Of a stretch of 64,000 nucleotides of DNA, positions 8,833 to 57,081 are shown piece by piece (positions within the stretch are counted from its first letter, which is position 1; each line of letters opens with the position of its first letter). A model generated the notes under the pieces. It was given only the letters and a program-made list of their open reading frames with translations, searched no databases and had not been told where the DNA came from. A program made the position numbers and the translations under genes. Location of the stretch: NCBI GenBank assembly GCA_944391065.1, contig CALXSH010000005.1, forward strand, positions 1,876 through 65,875, written 5' to 3'. This stretch comes from an uncultured Kiritimatiellota bacterium (lineage in GTDB: Bacteria; Verrucomicrobiota; Kiritimatiellia; RFP12; DVOR01).

Positions 8833-8959
8833 CCCGCGCCTCCTGTAAGCTGCGTCCTCACCCATCCTCGCGGCACCGTCGCCCCGAAGCAGGCACAGTC
8901 TACCAAACCCCGCCCCGCTGCCAAAGGCACCCCGAGAAAAGCCTGTCATGGCGCGGTTT

Positions 8960-9047
8960 TGAAACATCGCCCACGTTTAAAGCATTTGTCGCCCACTTTT
9001 GGAGCATTTGTCGCCCACTTTTGCCTCAATTGTCGCCCACTTTTTGA
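8960..9047. repeat. Array A: 4 imperfect tandem units, 22-bp period, core TCGCCCAC(TTT)
   Basis: TCGCCCAC starts at 8967, 8989, 9011 and 9033. Confidence 0.9.
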
Positions 9048-9093
9048 AACCGGCGTGGGCAAGGCGCGGACAGGGCGGGTGGAAGAGGTGCGC

Positions 9094-9486
9094 TCAGCTG
9101 AGGGCGAAGGGCTGGGGAAAGACGTCACGGAGCGACAGACGCGTCGCGGGGCCGGTGGGGGCGACGAGGAAGATGGGCATGTCCGGGGGGCAGAACTCGG
9201 CAAGGACCTGGCAGCAGGCGCCGCAGGGGGGAACGGGACGCGGGGCGGCGACGGCAAGGGCGGTAAAACGGCGGCAGCCGGCGGCGACGGCGGCGGTGAG
9301 GGCGTTGCGTTCGGCGCAGAGGGTGAGACCGTAGGAGGCGTTCTCGACGTTGCAGCCGGCGTGGACGGTGCCGTCCTCGCCCAAGAGCGCCGCGCCGACG
9401 GCGAACTTGGAGTACGGCGCGTAGGCCGCCTTGGCGGCCTCGCGCGCGGCGGCGGTCAGACGGGTTTCAGGGTCATCGGGTGTCAT
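9094..9486 (-). CDS. cdd: Cytidine deaminase
   Basis: AYAPYSKFAVGAAL, NVENASYGLTLCAER, PCGACCQ zinc motif. Confidence 0.95.
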   Translation of the reverse strand: MTPDDPETRLTAAAREAAKAAYAPYSKFAVGAALLGEDGTVHAGCNVENASYGLTLCAERNALTAAVAAGCRRFTALAVAAPRPVPPCGACCQVLAEFCPPDMPIFLVAPTGPATRLSLRDVFPQPFALS

Positions 9487-9497
9487 TGCGTGCCTCC

Positions 9498-12400
9498 TTA
9501 CTTCAATTTGAGGATCCAGCCCGGCATGGTGAAGGGCGCGATGCGCACCGTCGGATCGCCGAAAAGGGTCAACCCGGCACCCTCGGCAGCCGCGGCCGCG
9601 CCGACAGTCAGGTCAGGATTGGCGATCATGGCTTCGATTACGGCCATGCAGGCGGCGTGGGGCGTATCCGTATCCACCACGAGGCCGGTCCCGGTCAGCA
9701 CCGCGTCATACTCCTTGGGCGGCGCCAGCAACGTCAGCGCACCACCATACGGAGAAAGGACGAGCGTCTCGGCCACGGAGGGGTTGCTTCCGGCGGTCTG
9801 CCCCACTGAACCGATGGGGACCAGGGCCAGCGTGTGCAGGCCGGTCACGGCACCGTCTCCGAGCATATCGGCATCGAGCTTGACACCGTCATACCAACGG
9901 CTGATGACACCGGCGGAATCGCCACCCGTATCCGCGCCCTCCAGCCAGAGGAGCACGCCGTCACGCTTCACAGCATCACCGACACTGGCAATAAAGCGCT
10001 CCGGCGAAGGAGTCTGGAAGCAATAAATATCCGTCGCGCAGAAGGCCGCTTCCGTCAGCGGAGTGCGATTTGGAGAGAGCTTCCTCATCAGACGGTTCCG
10101 CTCACGCAGCGCGGTCATCGACACGCGTGCGCCCTGCGAGGGCATGTACCAAGCACGGTTGTCCGGTTCAGGCATACCGTCGATAGCCTCGTAGTTATGC
10201 TCAGGCGCTCCGGTGTAGCCCGAGCCTTCCGGATAGGTACCGCCAAGGAAGGTCACAACGCCGGGGCACCACGGCGCGGCCGCCTCGTGGCGTTGCAGTT
10301 TGGCCAGATAGTCTCCAATCTGCTGTTCGGCCGTGCGGGTTTCGGAGACGGTCACCACATTGACGTTGTCACGCTTGCCCAGAGTCTGCGTAGGGCGGAT
10401 GGGCAGCAGACCGACATACTTCCCGGCCAAAGGACCCACCGTCAGGGAGACTTCGGCTCCGTCTGTCGTGTCAGCCGTGGCACCGAGAATCACATAATCC
10501 GCGGGCTGGTTGAGCACGTAATCCGTCACCGCAGTACCCGCAGGAACATTCGAGGGGGAGGCCACCATGACGGTCCAGCTGCCGCCGTCCTCGGAGCTCT
10601 TCCAGGCGGCGTAGGACTCCCAGTAACCCATCTCCTTGTATTGACGGGGCGTCAGGATCAAGAGATTCCGAGCCCGGTTGGCCTCCGGCAGCGCTTCGGC
10701 TTCCGTGAGTGCCCCGTCGGCATAGACGGTAGGAGGCGTGACACCGGTCGAAATCAGACGGTAAGCATAGCGATTGCCGGCGACGGAAACGCACTCGACA
10801 CCGAAGCCCTCGGCCACGGTGAAGGTGAGATTCGACGTGGCGGTCTCGAGGAAGGTGCCGACACGTGTGCCGGTGACGGGGATGGGAGCGATAGCGGTCA
10901 CGGTGCCGGAGACGGTCAGCAGGCGCCCGGAGGTAAGCGCGGCCCCATCCAAGAGGCCGAGATTGTCCCCAAGCGAACCGCCGTCGAGCCGGGCAGGGCC
11001 TTGGACGATGACGGGGACATTGACATTGCGAAGCGAGAGGCGGGCACCCTCAGTAGAGGTCGTGACGGTCAGGGAGCCGGAGCCGTTGAGCGGAGCGGTC
11101 CAGGTAAGGACGGTGTTGGCGTTGCTGAGTTCCAGCGTAGCCTCATCCGACAGCGTGAGCGACGCATTACCCTCGGCTGTCACGGTGGCACTGTCCTGAA
11201 TGGTCAACGTGGTTGGCAGGGTGGCGGTGCCGGAGGGAACGATGAGGTCGGCACCGCTCAGAGTCAGCTTGGAGAGGTTAATACCCGGGCGGAGAACCAT
11301 CTTGGCGCCGCCTGAGAGCGTGAGGGGAGTGTCAATGGACTCGGTAGGTTCGAAGTCGACGCGGGTGCCGGAGACGGTCAAGGGGCCGCCGAGAACGAAG
11401 CGGGCGACGTCGAGACGAGCGGCGGGGGTATTGGCCGTCAGAGCGGCGACGCCCTCGGTCGTGAGGGTGCCGGCCCGCAGGGTCTTGTCGAGGGTCAGGG
11501 AGACACCCTCCGCCAGCGTCAGGTCACTGCCGGCATAGAATCCGCTCTCGGAGAGGCGGCAGGATTCGGCGATGCGCTGGGCAACGGGAGCCGTCACCCC
11601 ACCCGCCAGCCAGTCGGCCAGGGGTTGCTCTTCGGAACAGAAGGTGATGATCTTCTTCTGAGAAGTCAGGATGAAGGCCTTAGCCGTGGGACGGGAGGCC
11701 ATGGTGTCGACCTTTTCGCCGACGGTGGGATGGGAATACCAGAGGGTGTAGTTGTCGAGCGCGCCGGAGGCGCCGGCCTCGCGGAGTTCCTGACGGTCAT
11801 CATTGTCCTGAGGACGGATGCAGAGGATAGAGTTGCCATCCGCGGCGGCGATGGCCTCGTCCAGGGCGGTATGGACGATGAAGGAGGCTATGTCGGTGGG
11901 AGAGAGGACGGCCTCGTGTCCGCTGACGACGGCTTTGAGGTCGGCAAGGGTCATGCGGGGGGCGTCGTTACCGATGTAGACCTTATTCTCCTGCGTGGGG
12001 AAGGATTGGGAGGCATTGCCGCAGCGGACGGTATGGGCACCGTCGAACCACCCCCAGAGGCCATAGCGGCCGGCGTGATCGGTCAGGGTCGAGGCGATTT
12101 GTACGCCGTCGCGTTCGAGGGTGACGGGGGCATAAGGAATGGGGGCGCCGTTCCCGTCGACGACGGTACCGATGATGGGGAAAGCGTGGACGTCACGCGT
12201 GACGACTTCGGGGCGTTGGGCGACCATGGCGGCCAGGGCGTAGTCGAGTTTGCCGCCGGTGGCAGGGTAACGGCTGATTCGCGGCAAGGTATCCCAGAAG
12301 CCGGCTCCGCCGTAACCGAGGAAGATGGCGGTGCGGGGATTGTCGCCCTGGGCGTCGGTGCCGCAACCGTAGGCGACGACGGCATGGGCGCCGTAGCCGA

Positions 12401-12992
12401 GGTCAAGGCTGAGGGGAACGGGCGAACCGCAACGGATGGAGGCCCAGACGGCGGCTTCGATATCGTCCTGTGATGTGGCGTCGAGGTTGAGGGGAACGGT
12501 GTAGGCACTGGCGTAGCCGACGGCGGGGTGGCGCAGGGCGGTGCCGAGGTTGGCGAGCGGCGTGGTGGAGGCGGATTCGTTCGCGCCGTAGTGCATGTCA
12601 CTCAGGAGGCCGAGGTTGTAGAGGATGTCATAGACCGTGGCCATGCCGTCGGGGCGATTCGGCGTAGGGGACATAGAGGGCCAGTCAATCGGGCCGGCGC
12701 GAAGTTCGCGCTCGATATCGAAGATGACGGAGCCTTCGCCGAAGGCCCGCGGCCATTGAAGGGCCTCCATGGATGAGGCACCGGCGATGGCGACGCAGCC
12801 GGGCTGGTACTTCACGCCGAAGGGTTCGAGGGCGAAGTCCCGGTAGGGGTCGTACTGCGTCCAGTGGGTGGGAAAGTCGGTGGGCAGGGCAACGATATCG
12901 CGCGGGGCGCCGGCGGTTTCGGTGGCGGCGCGCAAACCGCACACGGCAAAACAACACATTGCGCAAATAAAGTGTGTAAGCGAAAACTTCAT
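9498..12992 (-). CDS. Secreted multidomain protein: N-terminal peptidase C10-like domain, carboxypeptidase-regulatory-like domain, beta-rich repeat region, C-terminal peptidase C25 (gingipain)-like domain
   Basis: HWTQYDPY, PGCVAIAGA..WP, DMHYG, HAVVAYG, LGYGG (C10); IIGTVVDGNGAPIPYAPVTL; NLLILTP..YAAWK and LFGDPTVRI (C25). Confidence 0.75.
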   Translation of the reverse strand: MKFSLTHFICAMCCFAVCGLRAATETAGAPRDIVALPTDFPTHWTQYDPYRDFALEPFGVKYQPGCVAIAGASSMEALQWPRAFGEGSVIFDIERELRAGPIDWPSMSPTPNRPDGMATVYDILYNLGLLSDMHYGANESASTTPLANLGTALRHPAVGYASAYTVPLNLDATSQDDIEAAVWASIRCGSPVPLSLDLGYGAHAVVAYGCGTDAQGDNPRTAIFLGYGGAGFWDTLPRISRYPATGGKLDYALAAMVAQRPEVVTRDVHAFPIIGTVVDGNGAPIPYAPVTLERDGVQIASTLTDHAGRYGLWGWFDGAHTVRCGNASQSFPTQENKVYIGNDAPRMTLADLKAVVSGHEAVLSPTDIASFIVHTALDEAIAAADGNSILCIRPQDNDDRQELREAGASGALDNYTLWYSHPTVGEKVDTMASRPTAKAFILTSQKKIITFCSEEQPLADWLAGGVTAPVAQRIAESCRLSESGFYAGSDLTLAEGVSLTLDKTLRAGTLTTEGVAALTANTPAARLDVARFVLGGPLTVSGTRVDFEPTESIDTPLTLSGGAKMVLRPGINLSKLTLSGADLIVPSGTATLPTTLTIQDSATVTAEGNASLTLSDEATLELSNANTVLTWTAPLNGSGSLTVTTSTEGARLSLRNVNVPVIVQGPARLDGGSLGDNLGLLDGAALTSGRLLTVSGTVTAIAPIPVTGTRVGTFLETATSNLTFTVAEGFGVECVSVAGNRYAYRLISTGVTPPTVYADGALTEAEALPEANRARNLLILTPRQYKEMGYWESYAAWKSSEDGGSWTVMVASPSNVPAGTAVTDYVLNQPADYVILGATADTTDGAEVSLTVGPLAGKYVGLLPIRPTQTLGKRDNVNVVTVSETRTAEQQIGDYLAKLQRHEAAAPWCPGVVTFLGGTYPEGSGYTGAPEHNYEAIDGMPEPDNRAWYMPSQGARVSMTALRERNRLMRKLSPNRTPLTEAAFCATDIYCFQTPSPERFIASVGDAVKRDGVLLWLEGADTGGDSAGVISRWYDGVKLDADMLGDGAVTGLHTLALVPIGSVGQTAGSNPSVAETLVLSPYGGALTLLAPPKEYDAVLTGTGLVVDTDTPHAACMAVIEAMIANPDLTVGAAAAAEGAGLTLFGDPTVRIAPFTMPGWILKLK

Positions 12993-13049
12993 CTGTGTCC
13001 CTCCGGCAGAGATTGTATCGGGTTGACGCTCTTGGGCACAAGCAAAAAC

Positions 13050-13154
13050 TCAGCAGCGGGCGCCGAGGATGAGGCCGAGGGCAGCGGCGAGGAGGCCGGA
13101 GAGGTTTTGGAGGAGGAGGTTGGCGCAGGCGGCGAGAACGAGTCTGAGGGTCAT
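13050..13154 (-). CDS. Putative 34-aa hydrophobic small protein (MTLRLVLAACANLLLQNLSGLLAAALGLILGARC)
   Basis: ATG at 13154 with upstream AAGGA, TGA at 13050-13052, GC3-rich codons; below the ORF-track length cutoff. Confidence 0.45.
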   Translation of the reverse strand: MTLRLVLAACANLLLQNLSGLLAAALGLILGARC

Positions 13155-13229
13155 GGGAGAAAGTCCTTGAGTTGGCGCGGTCCCCTGACTCAGGGGCTCT
13201 CACCTTTCAGCCCGAGTCATGCCGCGCAC

Positions 13230-13270
13230 AAAAAAAGCCCCGCTTGCACGGGTTTTGCGGAGCGGGGGTT
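13230..13270 (-). terminator. Intrinsic terminator after nadA
   Basis: GC stem AGCCCCGCT/AGCGGGGGTT followed by a T7 run on the - strand. Confidence 0.7.
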
Positions 13271-14319: not shown

Positions 14320-14765
14320 GGGCGCTCCTCCAGATAGAATTCGGCACGGCGATCGGTGTCGCCGAGGCGGGTGAGGCAGAGGCGGTAGCGGACGGGGGCC
14401 TCGGCATCGAGGACGCGCCGGGCGCGTTCGGGCCATTCGACGGCGAGGCGGTCACCGGCCTCGAGGGCTTCGGTGAAGCCGAGGTCGTAGAGACCTTCGG
14501 GAGAGGCCAGGCGATAGAGGTCGAAGTGGACGAGGTGTCCGCCGGAAGGGATGGGATAGGTATTGGCCAGGACGAAGGTCGGACTGGTCACCGCGCGGGT
14601 GATGCCCAGCGCCCTGGCGAGGGCCTGGACGAAGGTCGTTTTACCGGCGCCGAGGTCCCCCTCGAGGAGAAGGAGGGAGCCGGGTCCCAGAGACAGAGCC
14701 ACCTCCGCGGCCAGCGCGGAGGTGTCGCTGAGCGTGTGCAGATCGCGGGCGAAGAGCAGACGCAT
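14316..14765 (-). CDS. tsaE: tRNA threonylcarbamoyladenosine biosynthesis ATPase
   Basis: GDLGAGKTT, VTSPTF, HFDLYRL, VEWPE. Confidence 0.95.
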   Translation of the reverse strand: MRLLFARDLHTLSDTSALAAEVALSLGPGSLLLLEGDLGAGKTTFVQALARALGITRAVTSPTFVLANTYPIPSGGHLVHFDLYRLASPEGLYDLGFTEALEAGDRLAVEWPERARRVLDAEAPVRYRLCLTRLGDTDRRAEFYLEERP

Positions 14766-14772
14766 AACCGGA

Positions 14773-14994: not shown

Positions 14995-15040
14995 GAGGGA
15001 TATTCCTTTCGTTTTGGGGCAATACTATAGCAAAGCGGCT

Positions 15041-15505: not shown

Positions 15506-15521
15506 GGAGGGGCCTTCCGAA

Positions 15522-28713: not shown

Positions 28714-29718
28714 TCAGAAACCGGCTTCGCGGCAGAGCGCGGAGACGTACAGGGCCTTGATGGTGTGCATGCGGTTCTCCGCCTCGTCGAAGACGCGCGA
28801 GAAGTCCGACTCGAAGACGTCGTCCGTCACCTCCAGCGCCCCCGTCTCGCGGGAAACGTCCGTCTGATTGTCGTGGAAGGCCGGCAGGCAGTGCAGGAAG
28901 ATCAGGTCCTTGCCCAGATTGCCCGTCGCCTCGCAGAGCTTCATATTGATCTGATAGGGCCGCAGGAGCGCCAGGCGTTCGGCCTTCTTGTCCTCCTCAC
29001 CCATGCTCACCCACACGTCGGTGTAGAGCACGTTCGCGCCCTTCACGCCCTGAACGGGATCGGTCTCCACACGGATCTCGCAGCCATTGCGCACCGCAAT
29101 CGCGCGGGCCTCGGCCACCAGCGTCTCGGAGGGGAAGAGCGCTGCCGGCGTGACGTTGACGAAATTGATGCCCGCCTTGGCGCAGCCCATCATCAGCGAA
29201 TTGGCCACGTTGTTGCGGCCGTCGCCCACATAGGCCATCGTGCGGCCGCGGACCTCGCCGAAAGCCTCGCGCATCGTCATCATGTCCGCCAGGAACTGCG
29301 TCGGATGGCTCTCGTCCGTCAGGCCATTCCAGACCGGCACGCCGGAAAGCTTCGCCAGCGTCTCGACCGTCGACTGCCTGTACCCGCGGAAGAGGATGCC
29401 GTCAAAGAGACGCCCCAGCACCCGCGCCGAATCCGCCACCGACTCCTTCACGCCGAAGTGCGTGTCGTGACCGGTCAGAAACTCCGCGTGGCCGCCCTCG
29501 TCGCGGACCGCGATGGCCGCCGAATTGCGCGTACGGGTGGAACTCTTCTCGAAAATCAGCGCGATGTTCATCCGGCGAAGCAGATCGCCGCGGATGCCGG
29601 CCCGCTTGCGCGCCTTCAGCGCCATCGCCAGATCGACCATATAAGCCAATTCGGAGTCGCTCAGCGAACGGATGTTGAGCAGCGAACGTCCCAGCAGGGC
29701 ATGATTCAGTTCAAACAT
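28714..29718 (-). CDS. argF: Ornithine carbamoyltransferase
   Basis: FEKSSTRTR, HPTQFLAD, DVWVSMG, HCLP, AENRMHT. Confidence 0.95.
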   Translation of the reverse strand: MFELNHALLGRSLLNIRSLSDSELAYMVDLAMALKARKRAGIRGDLLRRMNIALIFEKSSTRTRNSAAIAVRDEGGHAEFLTGHDTHFGVKESVADSARVLGRLFDGILFRGYRQSTVETLAKLSGVPVWNGLTDESHPTQFLADMMTMREAFGEVRGRTMAYVGDGRNNVANSLMMGCAKAGINFVNVTPAALFPSETLVAEARAIAVRNGCEIRVETDPVQGVKGANVLYTDVWVSMGEEDKKAERLALLRPYQINMKLCEATGNLGKDLIFLHCLPAFHDNQTDVSRETGALEVTDDVFESDFSRVFDEAENRMHTIKALYVSALCREAGF

Positions 29719-29894
29719 GAGAATCCTTTCAGTTATTTGCTCCGCATTTTACCATATCTCCCCACCCCACTCGCGCCCCGCCCCCACGCGGCCCTTCTGC
29801 GGAAATTGCACAATTAGATGACGCACCATCGAAGAGAAGGGGACGTCCCCCTCCCTCGTCCCCTTCGAAGCCACAATACCTCCAAATGCGAGCT

Positions 29895-31678
29895 CTACTG
29901 CGCAGAGCGCTCCGTAAGCGGATACGGAAGTCTGGAGAAACTCCGGACAAACGGGAAACGCAGCAGTGCCCCCACAGAATCACAGACGGGAAAGGCCGAC
30001 GCAAGGCCCAATACCTCATCATCGGAGCCCGCGTGGGGATACAGGAACTGCCGATTGAGTCCGAGCCTCGGCATCAGCGGGTCCGACGACACCTTTATGC
30101 CTGCCACCCGCAGGCGTTCCCGCAATGTATAGGAGTCAATATCCTCAGATACGTACCAGGTATCGGAGACATCATGCAATCGCTCCAGTTGTTGCTGCCT
30201 GGCGACCTCCAATACCATCATTCTTCCTTGGTAGGCAACCGTCCGAATCAGAGTCAGCGAGGTCAGAGCGGCCACCCCAACGATGCAGACGATGCGAACC
30301 CATCGACAAACATAGCGGCGTATCCCCGGAAGAGGATTGGACAGGAGATTAAATCCTGCCAGAAACGGGATTACCCATATCTGCGGGAAATAACGGTTGT
30401 AGCCGATGTATTTCAGCGGAGCAAGATTGGAAACGGCAAACACGAAAAGGCAAAGCCAAAAAACGCTGTTCTTTTTTGAAAGAGCCAGCGCCACGGCACT
30501 TCCGAGAAGCATTATCCGAAACGCAGCCCCCATCCCGGCAACGCCTCCGGCCACAGCAAAAACCGGAGAAAAGTCAGGATTCCCGGAAACCATTCCGCCA
30601 AGATATACCGCCAGCGACGGTGAAATCCATGCGTACACTATTCTGGAGAGATACCCCATCGACAGCGCGTCCGCATTGCCCGTGAAATCAGCCGTGATGT
30701 CAACGGGCTCAATATTCGGATCAAACGTCAGCTCCGGATAAACCGGAGACCCGTACTGAATCCAAGAGGAAAGATACGGCGTGGCACCGGTGACAAGAAA
30801 AGCCGCCGCCCATCCGACCACTGCCCACCGATATATCGGACTGCACCTGCAAAGCCACCCCCCAAAACAATCAGCAACACGCTGAGCATCAGGCCGGTAC
30901 TCTTGGACAACGCACAGAAGAGCGCCGCCATGAAAAAAACCGCCGTATCATGAACCGTTACGGACTTCCGGAGCATCCACAGGGACAACAGGGCCGAACA
31001 AAGTGCGGCATACATCGTGTAATCTACCTGACCGGCCAGAAAACTGGTGATCTTCGCGGAAAAGGCCAAGGCCGCGGCAAAAACACAACGCCCCCCAGGG
31101 ACGCCCACATGGGGGAAAAAGCGATCATAAAAGCGTGCCGCAGTGACAAATAGCAGGTAAATCAGGACATAGCCGAGATAGGCATCCCCCGTCCAAAGCC
31201 CGGTCGCAGACGCGACAAAGGCGCCCACCAACGCACTTCCCTTAGGCAAAAAGAGCGTATGGTAGACGGAGCACCGCCCCAAATCGGCAATGGCCGAAAA
31301 CTTCTCCAACGTCGAGTCAAACAGCGGATTCCACCCCGTCCGAATTAAGTGCTGCATCGGGAAATGATAGTTAAGCGCATCCGTTCCCGTGTAGGAGAAC
31401 GTAAAGGCCGTCAGCACCAAAAAGCAAGCCGTCCATCCCCAGTAGGCAAGCAGACGTCGCCGGGAATGAAACAAAGCCAGCAGAGACCCTCCCCAAAAAG
31501 CCACCCACATCGGAACCGGACCGCAGGGAACCCCGAAGAAAAATCCCAAACACCCAAGCATGAGCCCGACGGCCAGTGTGCCCGGCAACAATACAGACAG
31601 CCTGAGAATCTCCCTGTCACAACACGCCGCGCGCCATGCGGCACAGCGGCACAAGAACTCTCTGAGCAATGTTTTCAT
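29895..31678 (-). pseudogene. Polytopic membrane protein (possibly GT-C-like surface-glycan modifying enzyme) split by a frameshift at a G6 tract
   Basis: ORFs 30728..31678 and 29895..30821 join into one 594-aa frame if one G is added at the C6 run 30858-30863. Motifs DALNYHFP, SKSTG, PYLSSWIQYGSPVYP. AT-richer than its neighbours. Confidence 0.75.
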
Positions 31679-32169
31679 CCGGTCCCGTCCTTTTTGGGGG
31701 ACAGAGACGCAAAAAGGGCGTGCCTCCGTCCCACACATTTTTCTGGGAGGCCTACCACAGCCCTGAGAAAAAACATACGGGAGAAAGCACGCCCCGGGAA
31801 TGAACCCCAGGACGCACCTCCGCGATACGTTCGTTTTCTCAGTAGAAAGTGGTAGTTTCCCAGAAACGAAAGTATGCGTCTGACGCATCGGTTATGCGTT
31901 CAAGGGGGACGGGAGGGCCTAGCAGGCCACCGTCACGTCTCAAACTATGTGGCCCTATGATAACACATTTCCCGAAGTTACCTCACAGGCCCCATGGGCG
32001 AGAAGTGCGCAAATGCGGACGCACTCTGCTATTTCCGTAGCCCTGCGCACAGTTGCATGCCGTCCCCGATGCCACCCGATGACGGCTCCGCAGCAGTCCG
32101 GCGCGGACCGCGGCATGGGCCGTCTGCGACCTGCGGGCAAGCCATGCCGGACCCCGGATTCGGCAAAGT

Positions 32170-32270
32170 CCGACCTCTTGGGCTATAGCCCAAGAGGCGC
32201 TACCCCTATAGCCCAAGCACGTCTACCCCTATAGCCCAAGCGGTGCTACCCCTATAGCCCAAGAGGTCGG
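32170..32270. repeat. Array B: 4 copies of CTATAGCCCAAG at a 23-bp period within an 18-bp perfect inverted repeat
   Basis: Copies start at 32183, 32206, 32229 and 32252; CCGACCTCTTGGGCTATA (32170) and TATAGCCCAAGAGGTCGG (to 32270) are reverse complements. Confidence 0.92.
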
Positions 32271-32513
32271 GATTGGGGGAAGCCGCGATCCGCTTTTGGC
32301 GACACGGCGGTCGGAGTCCGGCAGGGTGGCTGTCGGGCCGCCCCGCGGTGCCCGCGGGAGCGCGGCGGCTTCCGAGGCGGCATACGGCAGACCGAACCGC
32401 GGTGCGCAGCAGGGGAGAATCTGTCCGGCGCGGTTGGCAGGGGGCGAAGCGCTGTGCTATAGTCCAGAAAGATTCCGGGTGCATTCCGCATCCGGCAGTG
32501 AGGACCGACACGC

Positions 32514-33812
32514 ATGAAACGCTTCCGCAAGCTGACGCTCTGTGCGCTCGCCGTGCTTTCGGGTGCCGCGCTTTTTGCCGGCGGCCCGGCAAGCAGGGGC
32601 GCCGAACCCGGCGTCTGGACGACGGACCTTGAGGCCGCCAAGGCGCTGGCCGCGGCCAAAAATCTGCCGGTGCTGCTCAATTTCACCGGCAGCGACTGGT
32701 GCCATTGGTGCAAAGAGATGGACCGGCTGGTCTTCTCGACGGATACCTGGCAGGCCTACGCCCGGGAGCACCTTGTCCTGGTCCTAATCGACAAGCCCAA
32801 AGACCGGTCCCTCACGACGCCCGAGCTTGAGGCGCTCAACGCCAAGCGCCGCGAGGAGTATGGCGTGAAGGGCTTCCCGACCTTCGTGATTCTGACACCG
32901 GACGGCCGGGAGGCGGGCCGCAGCAACGCCGAGCGCGGGGCCACGCCGGAGTCTTTCATCGAGGGTATCCGCCGGCATCTCGTCACGGCCGACATCGGGC
33001 AGTATCTCTCCGCGGAGGAGGCGGCCGAATATGCTTCGCTGACGGAGGCTCTCCAAGCGTGGCAGAAGCGGGCCGAGGAGGTCTACGCGCGGCACGATGC
33101 CCGCTTCCGCCCGCATATCGCCAAACGCGAGGCGCTGGACGCCGAGGGTGACGCCTTGGTCGACAAGGCGGTGGCCGCCGCCAACCGTCCCACCCTGGCC
33201 GACGCCGCCGGTACGCCGCCCGTGACCCCGACGGACGATTTCGGGGCCGCCAAAGCCCTGGCCCGCGAAAAGGGGCTGCCCATTCTGCTGCGGTTTGTCG
33301 GCAAATCGTGGTGTCCCTGGTGCCGGCAGATGGAGGAGCAGATCTTCCGGAAACCCGAGTGGCAGGCCTATGCCGCAAAATATCTGATCACCGTGGACGT
33401 CGATCTGCCCAAGGGAGACCGCGCGCCGGAGACGGAGGAGGAGCGGGCAAAGGCCGCCCTCTGCAAGGAATTCGGTCTGCGGGGCGTACCGTCGTATTTT
33501 GTGCTGACCCCCGAGGGCGTCAACTGCGGCATGTTCGGCGCGACCACGGAGGCCTCCCCGGAGACCGCCGTCCGGGACATCGACCGCCGTCTGGTGGCCT
33601 ACGACATCGGCCGCTATCTCTCGGAGGAGGATACCGCCCGCGTCAATGCCGTCCTCCGGGCCCAGGAGGCATGGCGCGAAGAGGCCAACCGCCTGTGGGC
33701 CGAGCACGAGATAGCCCGCAAGCCGCTTGATGCCGAATTCCAGACGCTGAACGGACGCCTGCGGGAGCTCCGCAGAAAGGCCTGCGAGGCCGCCGGCGTC
33801 AAGGCGGAATGA
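32514..33812 (+). CDS. Exported protein with two thioredoxin-like (DsbH/SoxW-type) domains
   Basis: Signal peptide; NFTGSDWCHWC and FVGKSWCPWC; GFPT / GVPS cis-Pro loops. Confidence 0.9.
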   Translation: MKRFRKLTLCALAVLSGAALFAGGPASRGAEPGVWTTDLEAAKALAAAKNLPVLLNFTGSDWCHWCKEMDRLVFSTDTWQAYAREHLVLVLIDKPKDRSLTTPELEALNAKRREEYGVKGFPTFVILTPDGREAGRSNAERGATPESFIEGIRRHLVTADIGQYLSAEEAAEYASLTEALQAWQKRAEEVYARHDARFRPHIAKREALDAEGDALVDKAVAAANRPTLADAAGTPPVTPTDDFGAAKALAREKGLPILLRFVGKSWCPWCRQMEEQIFRKPEWQAYAAKYLITVDVDLPKGDRAPETEEERAKAALCKEFGLRGVPSYFVLTPEGVNCGMFGATTEASPETAVRDIDRRLVAYDIGRYLSEEDTARVNAVLRAQEAWREEANRLWAEHEIARKPLDAEFQTLNGRLRELRRKACEAAGVKAE

Positions 33813-48714: not shown

Positions 48715-48724
48715 AATGCCCGCC

Positions 48725-50720: not shown

Positions 50721-50745
50721 TCCTCACACAGACCGCGCGCGCGGC

Positions 50746-52035: not shown

Positions 52036-52125
52036 CGTCGTGTCCTTTCCCCAAAAACGGCCGTCTCACCCGGCACCGGCCGGGCATCATAGGCCGCACA
52101 GCGTACCAAAAAGCCCCGGAGACGC

Positions 52126-53811
52126 TCAGCGCGCGTCTTCCGTGACGCGGATAAGCTCTTCCACGGACGTAAAGCCGGAGAAGACCTTGCGCCAGCCGTC
52201 CTGGCGGAGGGTGGCCATGCCTTCCTCGAGGGCGGCTTTGCGGATTTCGGCGGAGGAGCGGCGGGCGATGACCATGGAGCCGATGCGCTCGGTGACTTCG
52301 AGAAGCTCAAAGACGGCGCCGCGGCCTTTGTAGCCGGTGCGGGCGCAGGCGTCGCAGCCGACGGGGGCGTAGACAAAGTCCTGCGGCGGGTCGCCCGGCT
52401 GGTCCCACCACTCGCGCCTGAGGGGAATCTTCGCGCGGCACTTGGGGCAGAGACGGCGGACGAGGCGCTGAGCGAGGACGCCTGCGACGGCGGAGGAGAC
52501 AAGGAAGGGCTCTGCACCCATATCGACAAGGCGGGCGAAGGCTCCGGCGGCGTCGTTGGTGTGGAGGGTGGAGAAGACGAGGTGGCCGGTAAGGGCGGCA
52601 TTGATGGCGATTTCGGCCGTCTCGCCGTCGCGGATTTCACCGACCATGATGATGTCGGGGTCCTGACGGAGGAAGGCGCGGAGGGCGCGGGCGAAGGTGA
52701 GGCCGATGTCGGAGCGCACCAGGACCTGGTTGATGCCGGGCATTTCGTACTCGATCGGGTCCTCGGCGGTCATGATGCGGACGTCGACCTTGTTGATCTC
52801 ATGGAGGAAGGCATAGAGCGAGGTCGACTTACCGGAACCGGTCGGGCCGGTGACGAGGATGATGCCGTTGGGGCGGGTGATGAGGCGGTTGGTGAGGGCG
52901 TAGTCGCGCTCGCTCATGCCCAGGTCGGCGAGGCGGACGAAGTTGCCGGCCTTCTGGAGGAGTCGGAGGGAGACCGATTCGCCGTAGGCGGTGGGGCAGG
53001 TCGAGACACGGATATCGATGTCCTCATTGTTGAGGCGGATGCCGATGCGGCCGTCCATGGGGAGGCGCTTTTCGGCGATATCGAGGTTGGCCATGACCTT
53101 GAGACGGGAGATGATGGCGGCCTTGAGGCGGTTGAGCTGCGGGGGGACGTCGACCTTGTGGAGCATACCGTCGATGCGGTAGCGGATGCGAAGCTCGGTC
53201 TCCATCGGCTCGACGTGGATATCAGTGGCGCCCTCGCGGTCGGCTTCGGCGATAATCTGGTTGACGAAGCGGACGATGGAGGCCTCCTGGCCCATCTCGT
53301 TGACGTCGATTTTGGAGATGTTGGCCTCTTCGGTGACCTCGTAGCGGCCGTCCTCAATCATCTTCTCGATGGCTTCGGCACCGACGCCGTAGTATTTGCG
53401 GATGGCCTTGTCAATCTCCTCGGCGGGGGCGAGGGAGACGCGGACGGAGAGGCCGGAGGCGGCGCGGATGCCGTCTGGCGCGGCGGTGTCGAAGGGATCG
53501 GAGAGCGCCACGCGCAGGGCGCCGTCCTCAATCGCGAGCGGCAGGGCGGCGTACTGGTAGACGGCACGGGCGGGGAGAAGCTGCAGGGCCTCGTCGGTGG
53601 GACGGGTGTGCTCGAGGTCGACGTAGCCGAAACCGAGCACCTCGGCCAGGCGGCAGAGGAAGTCGGCGGGCTTGGCGAGCTCGAGGCGGGTGACGGCGCC
53701 CGGGATGCCGCCTTCGGAGAGGTCGGAGGCCAGGATACGGGCAATCTGGGCGTCGGTGAAGAGGCCGGTCTGCTTAAGAAGCGCCGTAAGGAAGGGAGGC
53801 TGGTCGGTCAT
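52126..53811 (-). CDS. GspE/PilB family secretion ATPase
   Basis: GATDIHVEP, LVTGPTGSGKST, TAEDPIEY, RQDPDIIMVGEIRDGET, TGHLVFSTLHTND. Confidence 0.95.
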   Translation of the reverse strand: MTDQPPFLTALLKQTGLFTDAQIARILASDLSEGGIPGAVTRLELAKPADFLCRLAEVLGFGYVDLEHTRPTDEALQLLPARAVYQYAALPLAIEDGALRVALSDPFDTAAPDGIRAASGLSVRVSLAPAEEIDKAIRKYYGVGAEAIEKMIEDGRYEVTEEANISKIDVNEMGQEASIVRFVNQIIAEADREGATDIHVEPMETELRIRYRIDGMLHKVDVPPQLNRLKAAIISRLKVMANLDIAEKRLPMDGRIGIRLNNEDIDIRVSTCPTAYGESVSLRLLQKAGNFVRLADLGMSERDYALTNRLITRPNGIILVTGPTGSGKSTSLYAFLHEINKVDVRIMTAEDPIEYEMPGINQVLVRSDIGLTFARALRAFLRQDPDIIMVGEIRDGETAEIAINAALTGHLVFSTLHTNDAAGAFARLVDMGAEPFLVSSAVAGVLAQRLVRRLCPKCRAKIPLRREWWDQPGDPPQDFVYAPVGCDACARTGYKGRGAVFELLEVTERIGSMVIARRSSAEIRKAALEEGMATLRQDGWRKVFSGFTSVEELIRVTEDAR

Positions 53812-53834
53812 CCGGAAGGGCCTTTCTGGGTCGG

Positions 53835-55061
53835 TCACCGGCAAAGATGGGTGAGGAAGTCGACGAATTCGGGGTAGATGGTATCCATCATGAAGTTCTC
53901 GCGGGCGATGCGCGCGGAGGCGATGGATTCCTGGGTGATGCGGCTGCGCTGGCGGGTGTAGACGCGGACGGCGGCGCAGAAGGATTCGATGTCGCCGGCG
54001 CGGTAGAGCGTACCGGCCCCGTAGCGGGTGATGAGCCGCTCGGTTTCGCCGGTCAGGCAGCTGATCATCGGGAGCCCGGCGGCGGTGTAGTCGGCGAGCT
54101 TGTAGGGCACGGCGACGAAGCTGTCGGGAAACATGGGCACGATGGCGATGTCGGAGTCGGCCAGGAGCTGGTGCATATCCTCATTGCTGAGGTAACCGTG
54201 GAAACGGATGGCGGGGCACCCGGCGGCCTCACGGCGCAGGAGCGGTTCGCGCGGACCGGTGCCGGCCAGATCGAGACGGACGCGTTCGCCGGCCGCGAAG
54301 AGGCGGCGGACACCGAGGACGACGGTCCTCAGGTCATAACTGCGGCCCATGCTGCCGACGTAGATGAGGCGCAGGGGTTCGCTCTCATCGAGGGCATAAC
54401 GGTAAGCGCCGTTGTTCATGCGCATGATGCCGTGGTAGCAAAGGTGGCGCGGCGCACGGCACCCGTACCGGGCGGCCAGCTCAAGATAGGTGCGGCCGAC
54501 GCCGGTGACCGCGTCGGAGAGACGGTAAGCCTGACGGGCCTCGCGATGGAGACCGCTGAAGAGAATCCGCCCCAGGATGTCGCGAAACCAGTCGGGGCCG
54601 GGAATGAGCCGGTAGAAGTTCTCCGGCCAGGCATCCATGATGTCGACGACGACGCGGCAGTCCCAGCGCTTGCGGAAGAGGCGGGCGACGCCGGCGGTGC
54701 CGCAGGGCGGCCAGGAGACAAGCACCAAGTCGGGTCGGGCGAGTTCGCCGCTCTCGACGGCCTCGATGGCCAGGCGCTTCCAGTCGCGGGCATACTTCCG
54801 GTGGCTGCGGAAGCGGCGAAAACCGACATTGTCCTTATAGGGGAGCGTGGGAATCTGTCGGACCTGGAATCCCTCGGGCGCCGTGTAGACGGGGGTCTCG
54901 GCGACGGTGCGGCGGCGCTTGCGCGGATGGCTGAAGTCGCTCGTCCACCAGACGACGTCATGGCCGGCGCGGACCAACGCCCGGCAGAGCAGGCCGTAGC
55001 GCTGGATGCGGTGGCCCTCGCCGGGGAGGTTGTCGAAGGGATTGTTGACCCAGAAGATCAT
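53835..55061 (-). CDS. Glycosyltransferase family 4
   Basis: GT-B features DIMDAWPE, YVGSMGRSYDL, PYKLADY..AG.P. Confidence 0.88.
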   Translation of the reverse strand: MIFWVNNPFDNLPGEGHRIQRYGLLCRALVRAGHDVVWWTSDFSHPRKRRRTVAETPVYTAPEGFQVRQIPTLPYKDNVGFRRFRSHRKYARDWKRLAIEAVESGELARPDLVLVSWPPCGTAGVARLFRKRWDCRVVVDIMDAWPENFYRLIPGPDWFRDILGRILFSGLHREARQAYRLSDAVTGVGRTYLELAARYGCRAPRHLCYHGIMRMNNGAYRYALDESEPLRLIYVGSMGRSYDLRTVVLGVRRLFAAGERVRLDLAGTGPREPLLRREAAGCPAIRFHGYLSNEDMHQLLADSDIAIVPMFPDSFVAVPYKLADYTAAGLPMISCLTGETERLITRYGAGTLYRAGDIESFCAAVRVYTRQRSRITQESIASARIARENFMMDTIYPEFVDFLTHLCR

Positions 55062-55067
55062 GGCCGC

Positions 55068-56666
55068 TTACCATTCGCGCCGGGCGGCGCGGACCAGGAC
55101 GGTATCCTTGGCGACGCGGTGGCGTTCGGGATAGTCGAGGGTATAGTGCAGGCCGCGGCTCTCGTGACGCTCCATGGCGGAGGTGACGATGAGCAGGGCG
55201 GCGTCGGCGAGGTTCCGGAGCTCAAGGATGTCGGACGTGACGAGATAGTCGAAGTAGTACTCGTTGATCTCGCGGCGGAGGTTCTGCACGCGGTGGAGGG
55301 CGCGCTGGAGGCGGCGGTCGGTGCGGACGATGCCGACGTAGTCCCACATGCAGGTGCGGAGCTCCTGCCAGTTGTGGGCGACAAGGACGGCCTCGTCGGA
55401 GGGCACGGCGCGGCCATAGACCCAGTCGGAAATCTTCACGTCGGGCACGGCCGGCACCGGGGCGGCGTTGAGCGTCTCGGCGCATTCGCAGGCGCAGACC
55501 AGGGCCTCGAGGAGCGAATTGCTCGCGAGGCGGTTGGCGCCGTGCAGCCCCGTGCAGGCGCATTCGCCGACAGCGTAGAGACCGGGGATGGAGGTGACGC
55601 CGTCAACCGTGGCCGCGATGCCGCCGCAGCAATAGTGGGCGGCCGGAACGATCGGGATGAGATCCCTGGCCATGTCGATGCCGAATTCGAGGCACTTGGC
55701 GTAGATGCCGGGGAAGCGCTGCTTCAGATAGGCCTCACCGCGGTGGCGGATGTCCAGGCAGCAGTAGGCGTCGCCGCGCTTCTTCATCTCCGAGTCGATG
55801 GCGCGGGCGACGATGTCGCGCGGCGCCAGCGAACCGCGCGGGTCGTAAGCCTCCATAAAGGGTTTGCCGTCGCGGGTGACGAGCACGGCCCCTTCGCCGC
55901 GGACGGCCTCGCTGATCAGGAAGCGCTTGGCCTTGGGATGATAGAGGCAGGTGGGATGAAACTGCACCATCTCCATATTGCGGATTTCCGCGCCCGCGCG
56001 CCAGGCGGCCGCAATGCCGTCACCGGTGGCGACGTCGGGATTGCAGGTGTACTGGTAGACCTTGCCGCACCCGCCCGTGGCCAGAATGACGGTGGAGGCC
56101 CGGACGGCCCAGATCTCGCCCGTCTCGACGGTCAGCATGTAGGCGCCGACGACGCGGTTGTCGCCCGCGACATGGAGAAAACGGGTGGTGACAAGATCGA
56201 TCAGGAGGGTATTCTCGCAGATATGGAGACGCCCGGTGGAGCGGACCGCGGAGACGAGGGTCTCCTCGACCATGTGGCCGGTGATGTCGCCGGCGTGGAG
56301 GATGCGGCGCTTGGAATGGCCGCCCTCGCGGGTCAGGTCGTAATCGCCGGCGGCGTTGCGCGTGAAGGGGACGCCGAGGTCGATCAGAGCTTGGAGACAT
56401 CGCGGCCCGGCCTCGACGATGCGGCGGACGACGGCCTCGTTGCAGAGCCCGGCGCCGGCATCGAGGGTATCGGCGACATGTTCGTCAAAGGAATCCTCGG
56501 GGGACATCACGCAGGAGATGCCGCCCTGGGCATAATTGGTATTGGCCTCGGCCAGTTCGCGCTTGGTCACCAGCAGCACGCGGCCGCGTTCGGCCAGGCG
56601 CAGAGCGACCATGGTGCCGGCGAGACCGGAGCCGACGACCAGATAATCGGTGTCAATAGTCCGCAT
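55068..56666 (-). CDS. nadB: L-aspartate oxidase
   Basis: VVGSGLAG, NYAQGGI, REGGHS, QFHPT, SEAVRGEG, HYCCGG, GLHGANRLASNSLLE; RBS AAGGAG. Confidence 0.96.
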   Translation of the reverse strand: MRTIDTDYLVVGSGLAGTMVALRLAERGRVLLVTKRELAEANTNYAQGGISCVMSPEDSFDEHVADTLDAGAGLCNEAVVRRIVEAGPRCLQALIDLGVPFTRNAAGDYDLTREGGHSKRRILHAGDITGHMVEETLVSAVRSTGRLHICENTLLIDLVTTRFLHVAGDNRVVGAYMLTVETGEIWAVRASTVILATGGCGKVYQYTCNPDVATGDGIAAAWRAGAEIRNMEMVQFHPTCLYHPKAKRFLISEAVRGEGAVLVTRDGKPFMEAYDPRGSLAPRDIVARAIDSEMKKRGDAYCCLDIRHRGEAYLKQRFPGIYAKCLEFGIDMARDLIPIVPAAHYCCGGIAATVDGVTSIPGLYAVGECACTGLHGANRLASNSLLEALVCACECAETLNAAPVPAVPDVKISDWVYGRAVPSDEAVLVAHNWQELRTCMWDYVGIVRTDRRLQRALHRVQNLRREINEYYFDYLVTSDILELRNLADAALLIVTSAMERHESRGLHYTLDYPERHRVAKDTVLVRAARREW

Positions 56667-56906
56667 TATGGGATACTCCTTAGCGTCTATCATAGCAAAT
56701 GCCGCACGGGGACGCGCGGTTGTCCTCGAAGAGGAGGCGAAACCGGGGCGGGGCCAACGGAGGGCTCCCAGGTAACATGCCGTCCGTGACCGCCGATGAC
56801 GCAGCGGCCCCAGGCGAGGCCCCCGCCCCGATTCCAAAGCGACACGCCCCAAAGAGACTCGGAAGGAAGCCGGATTCCAATCAGTCTTCGCCCCGAAACC
56901 ACCAAC

Positions 56907-56990
56907 CACCCTATAGGGTAGTCAAATACCACCCTATAGGGTAGACGCACATCACCCTATAGGGTAGCGGGCTGCTACCCTATAGGGTGG
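56907..56990. repeat. Array C: 4 copies of the perfect palindrome ACCCTATAGGGT at a 23-bp period
   Basis: Copies start at 56908, 56931, 56954 and 56977. Confidence 0.93.
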
Positions 56991-57081
56991 CGAATGCTTT
57001 TCTGCCCCGGCGCCATTGGAAAGCGCCCGTCGGACGATTGGCCCCCGTCCCGGCCCCGGTTCGGATTCCGGCACAGGGCAG

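Follow-up and report, generated by a model that had tools for sequence, protein, structure and literature searches.

Three intergenic regions in the 64,000-nt stretch of DNA analysed here (the window), which comes from an uncultured Kiritimatiellota bacterium, each carry a run of four short repeat units at a fixed period, raising the question of what these arrays are and which protein, if any, recognizes them. A sequence-only reading of the window had proposed either a dispersed REP/MITE-like element with a variable repeat unit or phased binding sites for an unknown protein, and had linked the three arrays through shared flanking motifs. We examined the arrays themselves, their flanks, their distribution across the 1.96-Mb assembly and in congeners, and the genes that they accompany.

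Architecture of the window arrays

Both TRF and direct reading of the sequence confirmed four units in each region, with a period of 22 bp in array A and 23 bp in arrays B and C (Table 1). TRF returned array A as 8967–9044 (period 22, score 107) and array B as 32183–32266 (period 23, score 120). Array C consists of four copies of the perfect palindrome ACCCTATAGGGT, at 56908, 56931, 56954 and 56977, spaced exactly 23 bp apart by spacers that differ from one another, and its predicted fold comprises two long hairpins (−32 kcal/mol, z = −8.7). In array B, unit 1 is the symmetric sequence CTTGGGCTATAGCCCAAG, and units 2–4 read CTACCCCTATAGCCCAAG, which is a variant form of CTACGGCTATAGCCCAAG, the unit of family B. 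Array A forms a class apart from B and C, as it is made of non-palindromic direct repeats. Specifically, four AA(A/C)GTGGGCG cores follow each other at exactly 22 bp on the minus strand, each unit comprising CAAAAGTGGGCGACAA and 6–7 variable nucleotides, with a degenerate final unit, AAACGTGGGCGATG. The array A sequence is identical in two other, independent assemblies of the same species, and thus no presence/absence polymorphism was seen.

The start of the GH2 gene next to array A, at 8832, is that of the public gene call at the same locus. The promoter-like site of the thioredoxin-like gene begins ~170 bp past the right end of array B and therefore does not overlap the array. Array C lies between a terminator-like site and an sdhA/frdA-like gene (ORF 55068–56909) whose start is probably near 56670–56700.

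Table 1. Arrays and neighbouring features in the window, and motifs of the arrays upstream of HU-Ig paralogues elsewhere in the genome.
Feature	Position	Strand	Description
GH2 beta-galactosidase-like gene with signal peptide	5500..8832	-	array A upstream of gene
Promoter-like site, GH2 gene	8897..8924	-	TTGGCA, 16 nt, TG-TAGACT
Array A	8968..9055	-	four direct 22-bp units; TRF and sequence reading
Low-GC islet, left border of array B	29700..32000	.	GC 0.55-0.56 vs genome 0.65
Dyad-symmetric full element around array B	32106..32334	.	positions from sequence
Array B	32175-32266	.	four 23-bp units, GGGCTATAGCCC-type core; TRF and sequence reading
Promoter-like site, thioredoxin-like gene 32514-33812	32434..32463	+	TTGGCA, 18 nt, TG-TATAGT
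Array C	56905-56992	.	four perfect palindromes, period 23; TRF and sequence reading
Terminator-like hairpin and T-run	57088..57103	-	3' end of upstream GH2 gene (57134-61096)
Own upstream array of paralogue C10			ACCCTATAGGGT
Own upstream array of paralogue C73			CTACC(C/A)TATA(T/G)GGTAG
Own upstream array of paralogue C24			CTTGGGCTATAGCCGTAG
Own upstream array of paralogue C70			AAAAGGGTATATGGGT
Own upstream array of paralogue C16			TTCATACCGGTATGAA

Phased GTC sites flank the palindromic arrays

The flanking motifs on which the sequence-only reading had relied are confirmed in part and do not define a family. The motif CCCCGCCCCGnTnCCAAAG is present at 8908 and 56821 as described, but genome-wide it accompanies only arrays A and C, besides two unrelated sites with two mismatches, and at array A (8908–8926) it corresponds to the −35 hexamer and spacer of the GH2 promoter-like site. 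ATGCTT(T)TCTGCCCCGG similarly occurs at 56994 and 5445, with only one weak further site in the genome. Being found genome-wide only at the two window sites, these flank motifs were rejected as a link between arrays. The pair CATGCCGTCC and CCGATGACG, proposed to join B and C, turned out to be short words that are common in the genome (21 and 186 copies, respectively), and their register at array B differs from that at array C.

The general flank feature of families B, C and E is instead the trinucleotide GTC, read outward on both sides at a 22-bp phase. Measured from the outermost palindrome centre, it falls at +12, +34, +56 and +78, where we found it in 18, 19, 14 and 11 of 28 non-redundant flanks, respectively, compared with about one per offset on average. 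Around array B, GAC on the plus strand occurs to the left at 32106, 32128, 32150 and 32172, and GTC or ATC occurs to the right at 32266, 32288, 32310 and 32332, giving the 22-bp phase in the outward direction on both sides. The looser flank (32152–32168) that had been noted at array B lies inside this pattern.

Arrays are dispersed throughout the genome

About 50 intergenic arrays belonging to at least six motif families are present in the assembly, so that an absence of further copies genome-wide, which was named as refuting the original proposal, is clearly contradicted. They share an architecture in which a conserved 12–18-bp core recurs at exact phase, almost always in four units, with spacers that vary. 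From base composition, ~0.07 exact copies of the array-C 12-mer would be expected in the genome; allowing up to one mismatch, we observed 52 sites, among them nine clusters of exactly four sites spaced 23/23/23, and a chance origin of the arrays is excluded. Motif sites are almost confined to arrays, where the cores are conserved and the spacers free. Family A totals 14 arrays, including array A. Of the GTAG/CTAC head conserved in the imperfect 20–40-nt palindromes of REP elements, a counterpart (CTAC...GTAG) is found in C, E and B units and is absent from the units of families A, D, F and G and from those of the congener G007. The genes beside arrays are functionally unrelated and include GH2, cdd, sdhA-like, thioredoxin-like and cas9 genes.

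Dispersed, near-identical non-coding copies of 100–800 bp are a trait of MITEs that holds here for subsets of the arrays only. These subsets sit within dispersed repeats of 80–95% identity, which for C/E-type arrays number 6–8 copies of 330–690 bp and for A-type arrays seven copies of 200–490 bp; the three window arrays are not among these subsets. Aligning eight C/E-bearing repeat copies revealed a conserved core of ~450 bp with fuzzy edges and no evident terminal inverted repeats. The REP-associated Y1 transposase that had been suggested as a possible neighbour of some copies was not found: a search for Y1/RAYT (PF01797) gave no match at E ≤ 0.01 in this genome (G000) or in the congeners G002, G004 and G007, and control genomes were positive. 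Neither the window nor four array-bearing repeats gave an Rfam match reaching a gathering score, and the only sub-threshold match, to the miRNA family mir-3688, fell on a palindromic array in both orientations and was taken as spurious. No description of these arrays was found in the literature searched.

HU-Ig genes each carry a private array

The genome contains five paralogous genes for proteins of 255–269 aa (~260 aa), each combining an HU fold with an Ig-like domain (HU-Ig). The paralogues match the Pfam families HU-HIG (PF18291) and Bac_DNA_binding (PF00216), with PF18291 scores of 30–33 bits in three of the five (cut-off 26.2), 22 bits in one and no match in another. An AF2 model (pLDDT 79) consists of an HU fold and an Ig-like sandwich; in Foldseek searches the N-terminal half matched HU/IHF (TM-score normalised to target up to 0.82) and the C-terminal half matched CopC/Ig-like sandwiches, and a profile search also matched HU/IHF chains. 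The family is rare, with 142 matches in 1.84 billion representatives. A word-index search for protein homologues returned two clusters only, the index being too insensitive; searching the genome contigs with the paralogue alignment yielded no confirmed relatives, and the conserved leader GTGTCCGGTGAGG, used with two mismatches as a probe for more paralogues, gave noisy output in which only the known genes were recovered.

All five HU-Ig genes are preceded by an array of four 23-bp units, and the motif differs in each (Table 1). In every case an extended −10 box (TGnTAnAAT) starts 44–46 bp downstream of the last palindrome centre, a count that takes in the degenerate fourth unit of the C73 array. 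The core of window array C is the core of the C10 promoter array, and the unit of window array B is a variant form of that of C24; C10 and C73, which share 50% protein identity, have near-identical motif cores. Autoregulatory phased operator arrays lie in a fixed register with the promoter of their binder's own gene, and the arrays of all five paralogues show such a register with the promoters of these genes. The protein left unnamed in the sequence-only reading thereby acquires a candidate for arrays B and C, which match the own-promoter arrays of HU-Ig genes, but none for array A. A profile search of all ORFs and inspection of neighbouring genes identified no candidate binder for family A, and no HU-Ig partner was detected in this genome for families A and G.

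The remaining arrays, which we refer to as orphan arrays, favour promoter-bearing gaps and often adjoin low-GC islets, and those that were read had no promoter in the register found at HU-Ig genes. Convergent intergenic gaps are avoided in this genome, holding one of 30 arrays (p = 0.002–0.012).

Array motifs in congeners

Four of four HU-Ig homologues with available upstream sequence, from G003, G014 and G021, are each immediately preceded by a private 22/23-bp array with about four units, and orphan arrays elsewhere in G003 and G014 carry the respective genome's own motif. Between G021 and G003, nearly identical proteins go with almost the same motif; judged from this pair and from C10 and C73, motif similarity tracks protein similarity among HU-Ig genes. 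Array motifs turn over between species of this one genus. Because the congeners are only ~80% identical in protein, intergenic DNA could not be aligned, and in none of the same-genus sdhA loci retrieved did TRF report an array in the ~900 bp that precede the orthologue.

C-like arrays are also abundant in G007 and G004, with 185 and 136 adjacent CCCTATAGGG pairs at 23 bp, respectively, and neither genome has an HU-Ig homologue at E ≤ 0.01. These two genomes encode only a 145-aa HU-HIG-like protein, which was not detected in the assembly containing the window. It shows high conservation even between species whose motifs differ and therefore cannot set specificity, and we rejected it as the specificity determinant.

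Discussion

On the basis of co-location and co-variation of HU-Ig genes and array motifs, the arrays are probably phased docking sites for sequence-specific HU/IHF-superfamily proteins with a C-terminal Ig-like domain (HU-HIG-like). Each HU-Ig protein would bind its own palindrome as a dimer, so that four dimers would lie side by side ~2.2 helical turns apart, and the weaker GTC sites at the 22-bp phase may allow the complex to spread outward into a bent or wrapped nucleoprotein of ~250 bp. An array at the gene's own promoter would mediate autoregulation, and the other ~45 orphan arrays, window arrays B and C included, could be extra docking sites for the same proteins, serving as architectural or regulatory landmarks. 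Array A would be an analogous array of direct repeats with a 22-bp period, and part of the array copy number would stem from dispersal on small non-coding repeats. Running counter to a role for HU-Ig are the arrays of G007 and G004, which occur without a detected HU-Ig gene, the missing partners of families A and G, the REP-like placement of arrays in G007, the absence of a promoter in the HU-Ig register from the orphan arrays that were read, the unrelated functions of the genes beside them, and the published argument that HU-HIG proteins are unlikely to be sequence-specific transcription factors (PMC5499826). We tentatively speculate further that the HU-Ig proteins could be private 'address' systems, in which each paralogue recognizes its own palindrome and assembles first on the four sites at 23-bp spacing, from where it extends across the phased GTC sites as a wrapped complex of ~250 bp; some ten orphan arrays for each paralogue would then act as chromosomal landmarks, such as boundaries of horizontally acquired low-GC islets or promoter insulators, with proteins and sites co-diversifying within the genus.

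It is also conceivable, though in our estimate unlikely, that the arrays are mainly selfish or neutral REP/BIME- or MITE-like repeats independent of HU-Ig, whose neighbouring palindromes would base-pair as hairpins, in RNA or in DNA made single-stranded, and could end or stabilise transcripts, and that HU-Ig genes merely acquired arrays or use them secondarily. G007 and G004 would fit such a view, each having more than 100 adjacent site pairs with no detected HU-Ig gene, and many G007 arrays lie 80–130 bp past stop codons, with six of 17 loci for which both neighbours were called being convergent gaps. Motif turnover between species, the dispersed repeats, the proximity of 16 of 53 TRF arrays to a contig end (≤600 bp) and the folding of array C into two hairpins just past a terminator point the same way. 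However, strict four-unit composition, exact 23-bp phasing and free spacers are characteristic of sites bound by protein rather than of functional hairpins, and the non-palindromic family A could not form such hairpins at all. The near absence of arrays from convergent gaps in this genome, the identity of array A between independent assemblies, the lack of a detected RAYT gene and of evident terminal inverted repeats likewise argue against selfish repeats, which would also leave unexplained the private promoter-proximal array at each of nine HU-Ig genes. REP or MITE membership proper is thus not supported; a REP/MITE-like selfish component is possible, since some arrays ride on 200–700-bp dispersed repeats. 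What survives of the original proposal is one dispersed family of phased arrays that are protein-binding sites, a REP/MITE-like element or both, and not the evidence by which A, B and C had been linked.

That HU-Ig genes are targets and not binders, the arrays being operators of another family of sequence-specific regulators, appears improbable. Arrays in genomes without HU-Ig and the unpartnered families A and G would be accommodated, as would the usually low sequence specificity of HU-family proteins (PMC5499826), but at least five further paralogous regulators of matching specificity would be needed, no candidate family recurs beside arrays, and the one-gene-one-motif rule at nine HU-Ig genes in four genomes is simplest as autoregulation. 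We regard it as highly improbable that the arrays are iterons or resemble centromeres, as parts of a replicon or mobile element (a plasmid origin, a ParR/parC-type centromere or a Tn7-like transposon end). The 22–23-bp period and 4–6 copies do resemble those of R6K and RK2 iterons, of parC and of the four 22-bp TnsB sites in the right end of Tn7, and one G array has an IS630-like HTH ORF 440 bp away. Nevertheless, iterons and parC centromeres lie next to rep or par genes at one or few loci per replicon, whereas ~50 arrays are spread across the assembly contigs, no rep, par or tnsB-like neighbours were found among the genes examined, and the arrays are single and dyad-symmetric instead of forming paired ends; the neighbouring genes examined, together with the RAYT search, led us to reject the RAYT, iteron, par and Tn7 readings. 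CRISPR, in which cas genes accompany repeats of 23–50 nt with unique spacers of 26–72 nt, was rejected as well, as the arrays have four units with spacers of 5–11 nt.

Returning to HU-Ig proteins as the probable binders, the closest described group is the HU-HIG clade of the HU/IHF superfamily (Pfam PF18291), in particular its Ig-fused subclade; PDB 4FMR was the cited structure, and HU-HIG proteins were argued to be unlikely sequence-specific transcription factors (Burroughs et al. 2017, PMC5499826). This was the only analysis of HU-HIG found in the literature searched, and it predicts a lack of sequence specificity (PMC5499826). The proteins described here resemble HU-HIG in their matches to PF18291 and PF00216, in having an HU fold followed by an Ig-like domain, and in forming a fast-diverging, lineage-specific expansion whose members have no conserved operon partners. 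They differ in their weak scores (22–33 bits, two of the five paralogues being below the Pfam cut-off), in belonging to a lineage outside the Bacteroidota, in which HU-HIG was defined, and in the private phased array of each paralogue, where the paper predicted no sequence-specific role.

Likenesses to other systems are partial. REP/BIME elements (RIP/RIB with an IHF site in E. coli) are also short, palindromic, hairpin-capable intergenic units in tens of copies, species-specific and probably associated with an HU/IHF-family protein, but there the units are single or inverted pairs of 20–40 nt, whereas the arrays are 12–18-bp palindromes in strict fours at 22–23 bp, favour promoter-bearing gaps over 3′ ends (G007 excepted) and come without a detected RAYT gene. 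ParR–parC of R1 and pSK41 and omega of pSM19035 share tandem sites of fixed phase at the binder's own promoter and, probably, cooperative autoregulation; the present arrays differ in lacking a partition ATPase or actin-like partner, in a candidate binder with an HU rather than a ribbon-helix-helix fold, and in the dozens of orphan arrays elsewhere in the genome. With IHF/HU architectural sites they share the same protein fold, a probable minor-groove bending mode and an [A/G]TC flank reminiscent of the ATC in the IHF consensus WATCAANNNNTTR, but IHF sites are single, asymmetric and ~35 bp long, whereas the arrays combine four strong palindromes with weak sites in phase, and their cores are specific to the paralogue. 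The Tn7 right end consists of four abutting 22-bp TnsB sites, resembling the four direct 22-bp units of array A, but no TnsB or TnsA genes were seen among the neighbours examined, and the 14 family-A arrays are solitary, with no paired left end.

HU-HIG and HU-Ig proteins make up a large group that evolves fast and for which neither a function nor a DNA target is known, and the arrays provide these enigmatic proteins with a candidate target that can be tested with one protein and 92 bp of DNA. Five paralogues with distinct arrays in one genome offer a natural specificity series for how an HU fold might read sequence. If the 'address' reading were true, it would overturn the published view of HU-HIG as not sequence-specific and establish the arrays as bacterial nucleoprotein elements of a new class, and the arrays may represent a new layer of chromosome organisation, or of control over horizontally acquired islands, in uncultured gut bacteria.

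In metagenome assemblies, short-read contigs of this lineage are broken by these repeats, and short-read contigs from six other samples terminate within array A.

Phased arrays recur across the genome

All three intergenic four-unit repeats described in the sequence-only reading were recovered by Tandem Repeats Finder (TRF) and direct reading, and they are genuine and well beyond what chance would produce. By GC3-based gene calls and Pfam, array A separates a cytidine deaminase gene from the gene for a secreted GH2 enzyme and ends upstream of the GH2 promoter-like site, about 45 bp from its -35 hexamer. Array B is flanked by a low-GC islet and by a thioredoxin-like gene, its end about 170 bp from that gene's promoter-like site, and array C has the terminator of a second GH2 gene on one side and an sdhA/frdA-like flavoprotein gene on the other. 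Read directly on the minus strand, array A consists of four AA(A/C)GTGGGCG cores spaced by exactly 22 bp. Array B comprises one symmetric CTTGGGCTATAGCCCAAG unit and three units of CTACCCCTATAGCCCAAG, and array C holds four perfect ACCCTATAGGGT palindromes (at 56908, 56931, 56954 and 56977) whose four spacers all differ.

Across the whole source assembly (1.96 Mb in 79 contigs, 65% GC; window, C5:1876-65875), TRF locates about 50 arrays between genes, with a period of 22 or 23 and usually 3.5-4 copies, so the proposed repeats do have further copies genome-wide. The family C core, for example, occurs at 52 sites with at most one mismatch, of which hardly any lie outside arrays; nine clusters consist of exactly four at 23/23/23 spacing. 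Cores are conserved while the 5-11-nt spacers vary, a pattern that points to binding-site selection and not to recent tandem duplication. Within array B (32198-32266), three of the four units depart from the family B consensus by one shared GG-to-CC change, so that a single array has changed in concert; the altered half-site is similar to that of C/E (CTACCC).

Arrays of the window (Tandem Repeats Finder and direct reading), motif families of the source assembly, and HU-Ig genes
Feature	Location	Strand	Period (bp)	Motif	Remarks
Array A	8967-9044 (TRF); units 8968-9055	minus	22
Array B	32183-32266 (TRF); four 23-bp units 32175-32266		23
Array C	56905-56992		23
Family A			22	CAAAAGTGGGCGACAA	direct repeats; 14 arrays
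Family B			23	CTTGGGCTATAGCCGTAG	8 arrays
Family C			23	ACCCTATAGGGT	9 arrays
Family D			23	AAAAGGGTATATGGGT	often two opposed blocks
Family E			23	CTACCATATATGGTAG	6 arrays; outer units C-like
Family F			23	TTCATACCGGTATGAA
Family G			22	AATGTCGGGGGGCAACATTAC	5-6 units
HU-Ig C10	C10:467-1276			family C (own array)
HU-Ig C73	C73:4002-4811			family E (own array)
HU-Ig C24	C24:27828-28625			family B (own array)
HU-Ig C70	C70:1407-2201			family D (own array)
HU-Ig C16	C16:34178-34951			family F (own array)

Shared flanks had been proposed to link the three arrays, an argument that proved wrong in its details, given genome-wide counts and differing registers. The flank CCCCGCCCCGnTnCCAAAG is indeed present at 8908 and 56821, but it is not a family feature, as the rest of the genome offers only two further sites, both unrelated and each differing at two positions. 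At array A this flank supplies the -35 hexamer and the spacer of TTGGCA-16-TG-TAGACT, a promoter-like site reading into the GH2 gene; at array C no -10 box follows it. Of the other proposed words, some are very rare, such as ATGCTTTTCTGCCCCGG with 2-3 copies, and some common, such as CCGATGACG with 186; their registers differ at B and C. Another flank feature does hold generally for the 23-bp arrays: reading outward on both flanks from the outermost palindrome centre, GTC (sometimes ATC) recurs at +12, +34, +56 and +78 in 18/28, 19/28, 14/28 and 11/28 non-redundant flanks, respectively, compared with about one flank at an average offset. Array B shows the full pattern (GAC at 32106, 32128, 32150 and 32172; GTC/ATC at 32266, 32288, 32310 and 32332), which makes the element a dyad-symmetric unit of about 230 bp; in array C the GTC phasing is poor and a symmetric GA(T/C)TGG lies near +32 on both sides instead. 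At C30:18357-18539, a 4 x 22-bp GGTCCGGTAACGGGCACACGGA array abutting a family B array is an amplified version of this phased GTC flank.

HU-Ig paralogues carry private arrays

A whole-genome search with the Pfam models HU-HIG and Bac_DNA_binding, followed by tblastn, identified five HU-Ig paralogues of 255-269 aa with 31-50% mutual identity. It also picked up a truncated pseudogene (C14) and a single distant protein of HU-DNA_bdg + DUF4469 type (C46); a full-text literature search for DUF4469 found no paper. The AlphaFold model (pLDDT 79) shows an HU fold followed by an Ig-like sandwich, the HU part matching HU/IHF structures with target-normalised TM-scores up to 0.82, and the HU-Ig profile likewise matches HU and IHF chains among PDB sequences. 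Each of the five genes has a 4 x 23-bp array upstream, with a different motif at each, and an extended -10 box (TGnTAnAAT) that starts 44-46 bp from the last palindrome centre in all five, counting C73 with a degenerate fourth unit. Because the motif families match, array C of the window has the core of the C10 gene's own array, and array B is a variant of the array at C24: three of its units have CC in place of GG in one half-site.

Among 40 related genomes, HU-Ig homologues at E <= 1e-10 occur only in the congeners G003, G014 and G021, and each of the four homologues with available upstream sequence is immediately preceded by a private array of about four units, with a period of 22 or 23 bp and the motifs AATTAACCCCGTGGGGATAATT, its near-twin, AATAAGACCCCGTCTTATT and AATAAGTCCnnnACTTAT. 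The motif tracks the protein: near-identical proteins have near-identical motifs, and distant proteins share outer half-sites only. G003 and G014 also carry orphan arrays of matching motif, away from the HU-Ig promoters. All nine HU-Ig genes have an array no more than 200 bp upstream, against a background of about one array per 40 kb; the association cannot be chance, and we infer from this linkage that each HU-Ig protein would bind its upstream array. A G003 locus (L027:68-264) has two four-unit arrays side by side with different cores, AATTAAGCCCGTGGGGATAATT and AATTAACCCTTAGGGATAATT, which suggests two specificities at one locus.

The family is rare, with 142 matches at E <= 1e-3 among 1.84 billion representative proteins, about 20 of them full length. 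HU-HIG proteins have been described as a lineage-specific expansion with rapid divergence and without conserved gene neighbours, unlikely to be sequence-specific transcription factors and proposed to act against invasive DNA (Burroughs et al. 2017, PMC5499826); no other HU-HIG analysis was found in the literature searched.

Placement of orphan arrays

Orphan arrays far outnumber gene-linked arrays in the source genome. Where both neighbours were called (30 arrays), 13 gaps are divergent, 16 tandem and one convergent, against 20-25% convergent gaps at baseline (p = 0.002-0.012); this avoidance indicates a preference for promoter-bearing regions. The orphan arrays that were read lack a promoter in the HU-Ig-gene register, and the neighbouring genes examined share no common function. 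We also observed a 1-kb flank of less than 58% GC beside 15 of 50 arrays, compared with 42 of 316 control gaps. Several arrays of families A and G have AAA_21/RloB-like defence-type genes as neighbours. Low-GC islets contain family G arrays and some of family A, adjacent to AAA_21/AAA_15 ATPases and an RloB-like protein (C32:9226-13173, C29:18549-22670 and C49:12993-14300), and one array at C29 is 440 bp from an IS630-like HTH ORF. Given these features and the mixed placements, an architectural or boundary role would seem as likely as classical gene regulation.

A possible selfish or mobile component

A serious rival is that the arrays have a REP/MITE-like selfish or mobile component, which need not exclude HU-Ig binding. 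Dispersed non-coding repeats with 80-95% identity carry subsets of the C/E arrays (6-8 copies of 330-690 bp) and of the A arrays (7 copies of 200-490 bp), but the aligned copies show no evident terminal inverted repeats and a Y1/RAYT transposase is absent from the four genomes searched. In single-stranded form, adjacent palindromes fold together into long hairpins (-32 kcal/mol, z = -8.7), whereas family A is non-palindromic. Contig breaks also point to such a component, with 16 of 53 TRF arrays within 600 bp of a contig end and Logan contigs from six other samples terminating inside array A, yet array A is identical across independent assemblies of the species. Further support comes from the congeners G007 and G004, which contain 185 and 136 adjacent CCCTATAGGG pairs at 23 bp, respectively, yet have no HU-Ig homologue detectable with three different models; in G007, arrays of 4-7 units frequently follow a stop codon by 80-130 bp, and where both neighbours were called (17 loci), 6 gaps are convergent. 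HU-Ig genes of these two genomes could have been lost in binning; all five in the source assembly lie no more than about 2.2 kb from a contig end.

The G007/G004 pairs (for example, loci L089-L108) consist of GAGACCCTATAGGGGTC units in arrays of 4-7, many right behind stop codons. The only HU-HIG-like protein in these genomes is a 145-aa single-domain protein, highly conserved across the genus, including species with different motifs (L048-L053: G001, G004, G006, G007, G010 and G011), and not detected in the source assembly; it therefore cannot explain specificity and was ruled out as its determinant. Upstream of its G007 gene, AGGGT half-sites lie 46 and 23 bp apart, beside a -35 box.

One C/E-bearing repeat of 450-690 bp (C18:24080-24742; copies on C27, C24, C4, C13 and C66) has a CTCCCGG...CCGGGAG stem-loop on one side and a AAATGCGCCTA...TAGGCGCATTT hairpin near the end on the other; Rfam returned no match to it above a gathering score. 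More generally, 133 of the 158 contig ends have a match in another part of the assembly (for example, C73, C24, C12, C52, C59 and C28), and several share 72-77-bp overlaps with several other contigs, indicating that one or more further repeat families break the assembly. Other tandem repeats, with long units of 31-43 bp, occur at contig ends on C7, C47 and C64.

Relation to known systems

The arrays resemble the cooperative phased operators of ParR-parC in their presumed mode of action and REP/BIME or RIP elements in their dispersal, but share the defining features of neither. The earlier view of a dispersed family of phased protein-binding arrays was right in outline. For arrays B and C, the pairing of paralogues with motifs leads us to favour, with moderate confidence, cooperative binding by paralogue-specific HU-Ig proteins as the most likely mechanism; array A belongs to a parallel 22-bp class outside this pairing. 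What the window adds is one genome with five paralogue-motif pairs and phased GTC flanks.

The C10 HU-Ig gene and its array are divergent from a cas9 (1076 aa, HNH_4)-cas1-cas2 operon across an intergenic region of about 800 bp (C10:1-1276; L063:135-6132 in another assembly of the same species). IHF assists CRISPR spacer integration in other systems.
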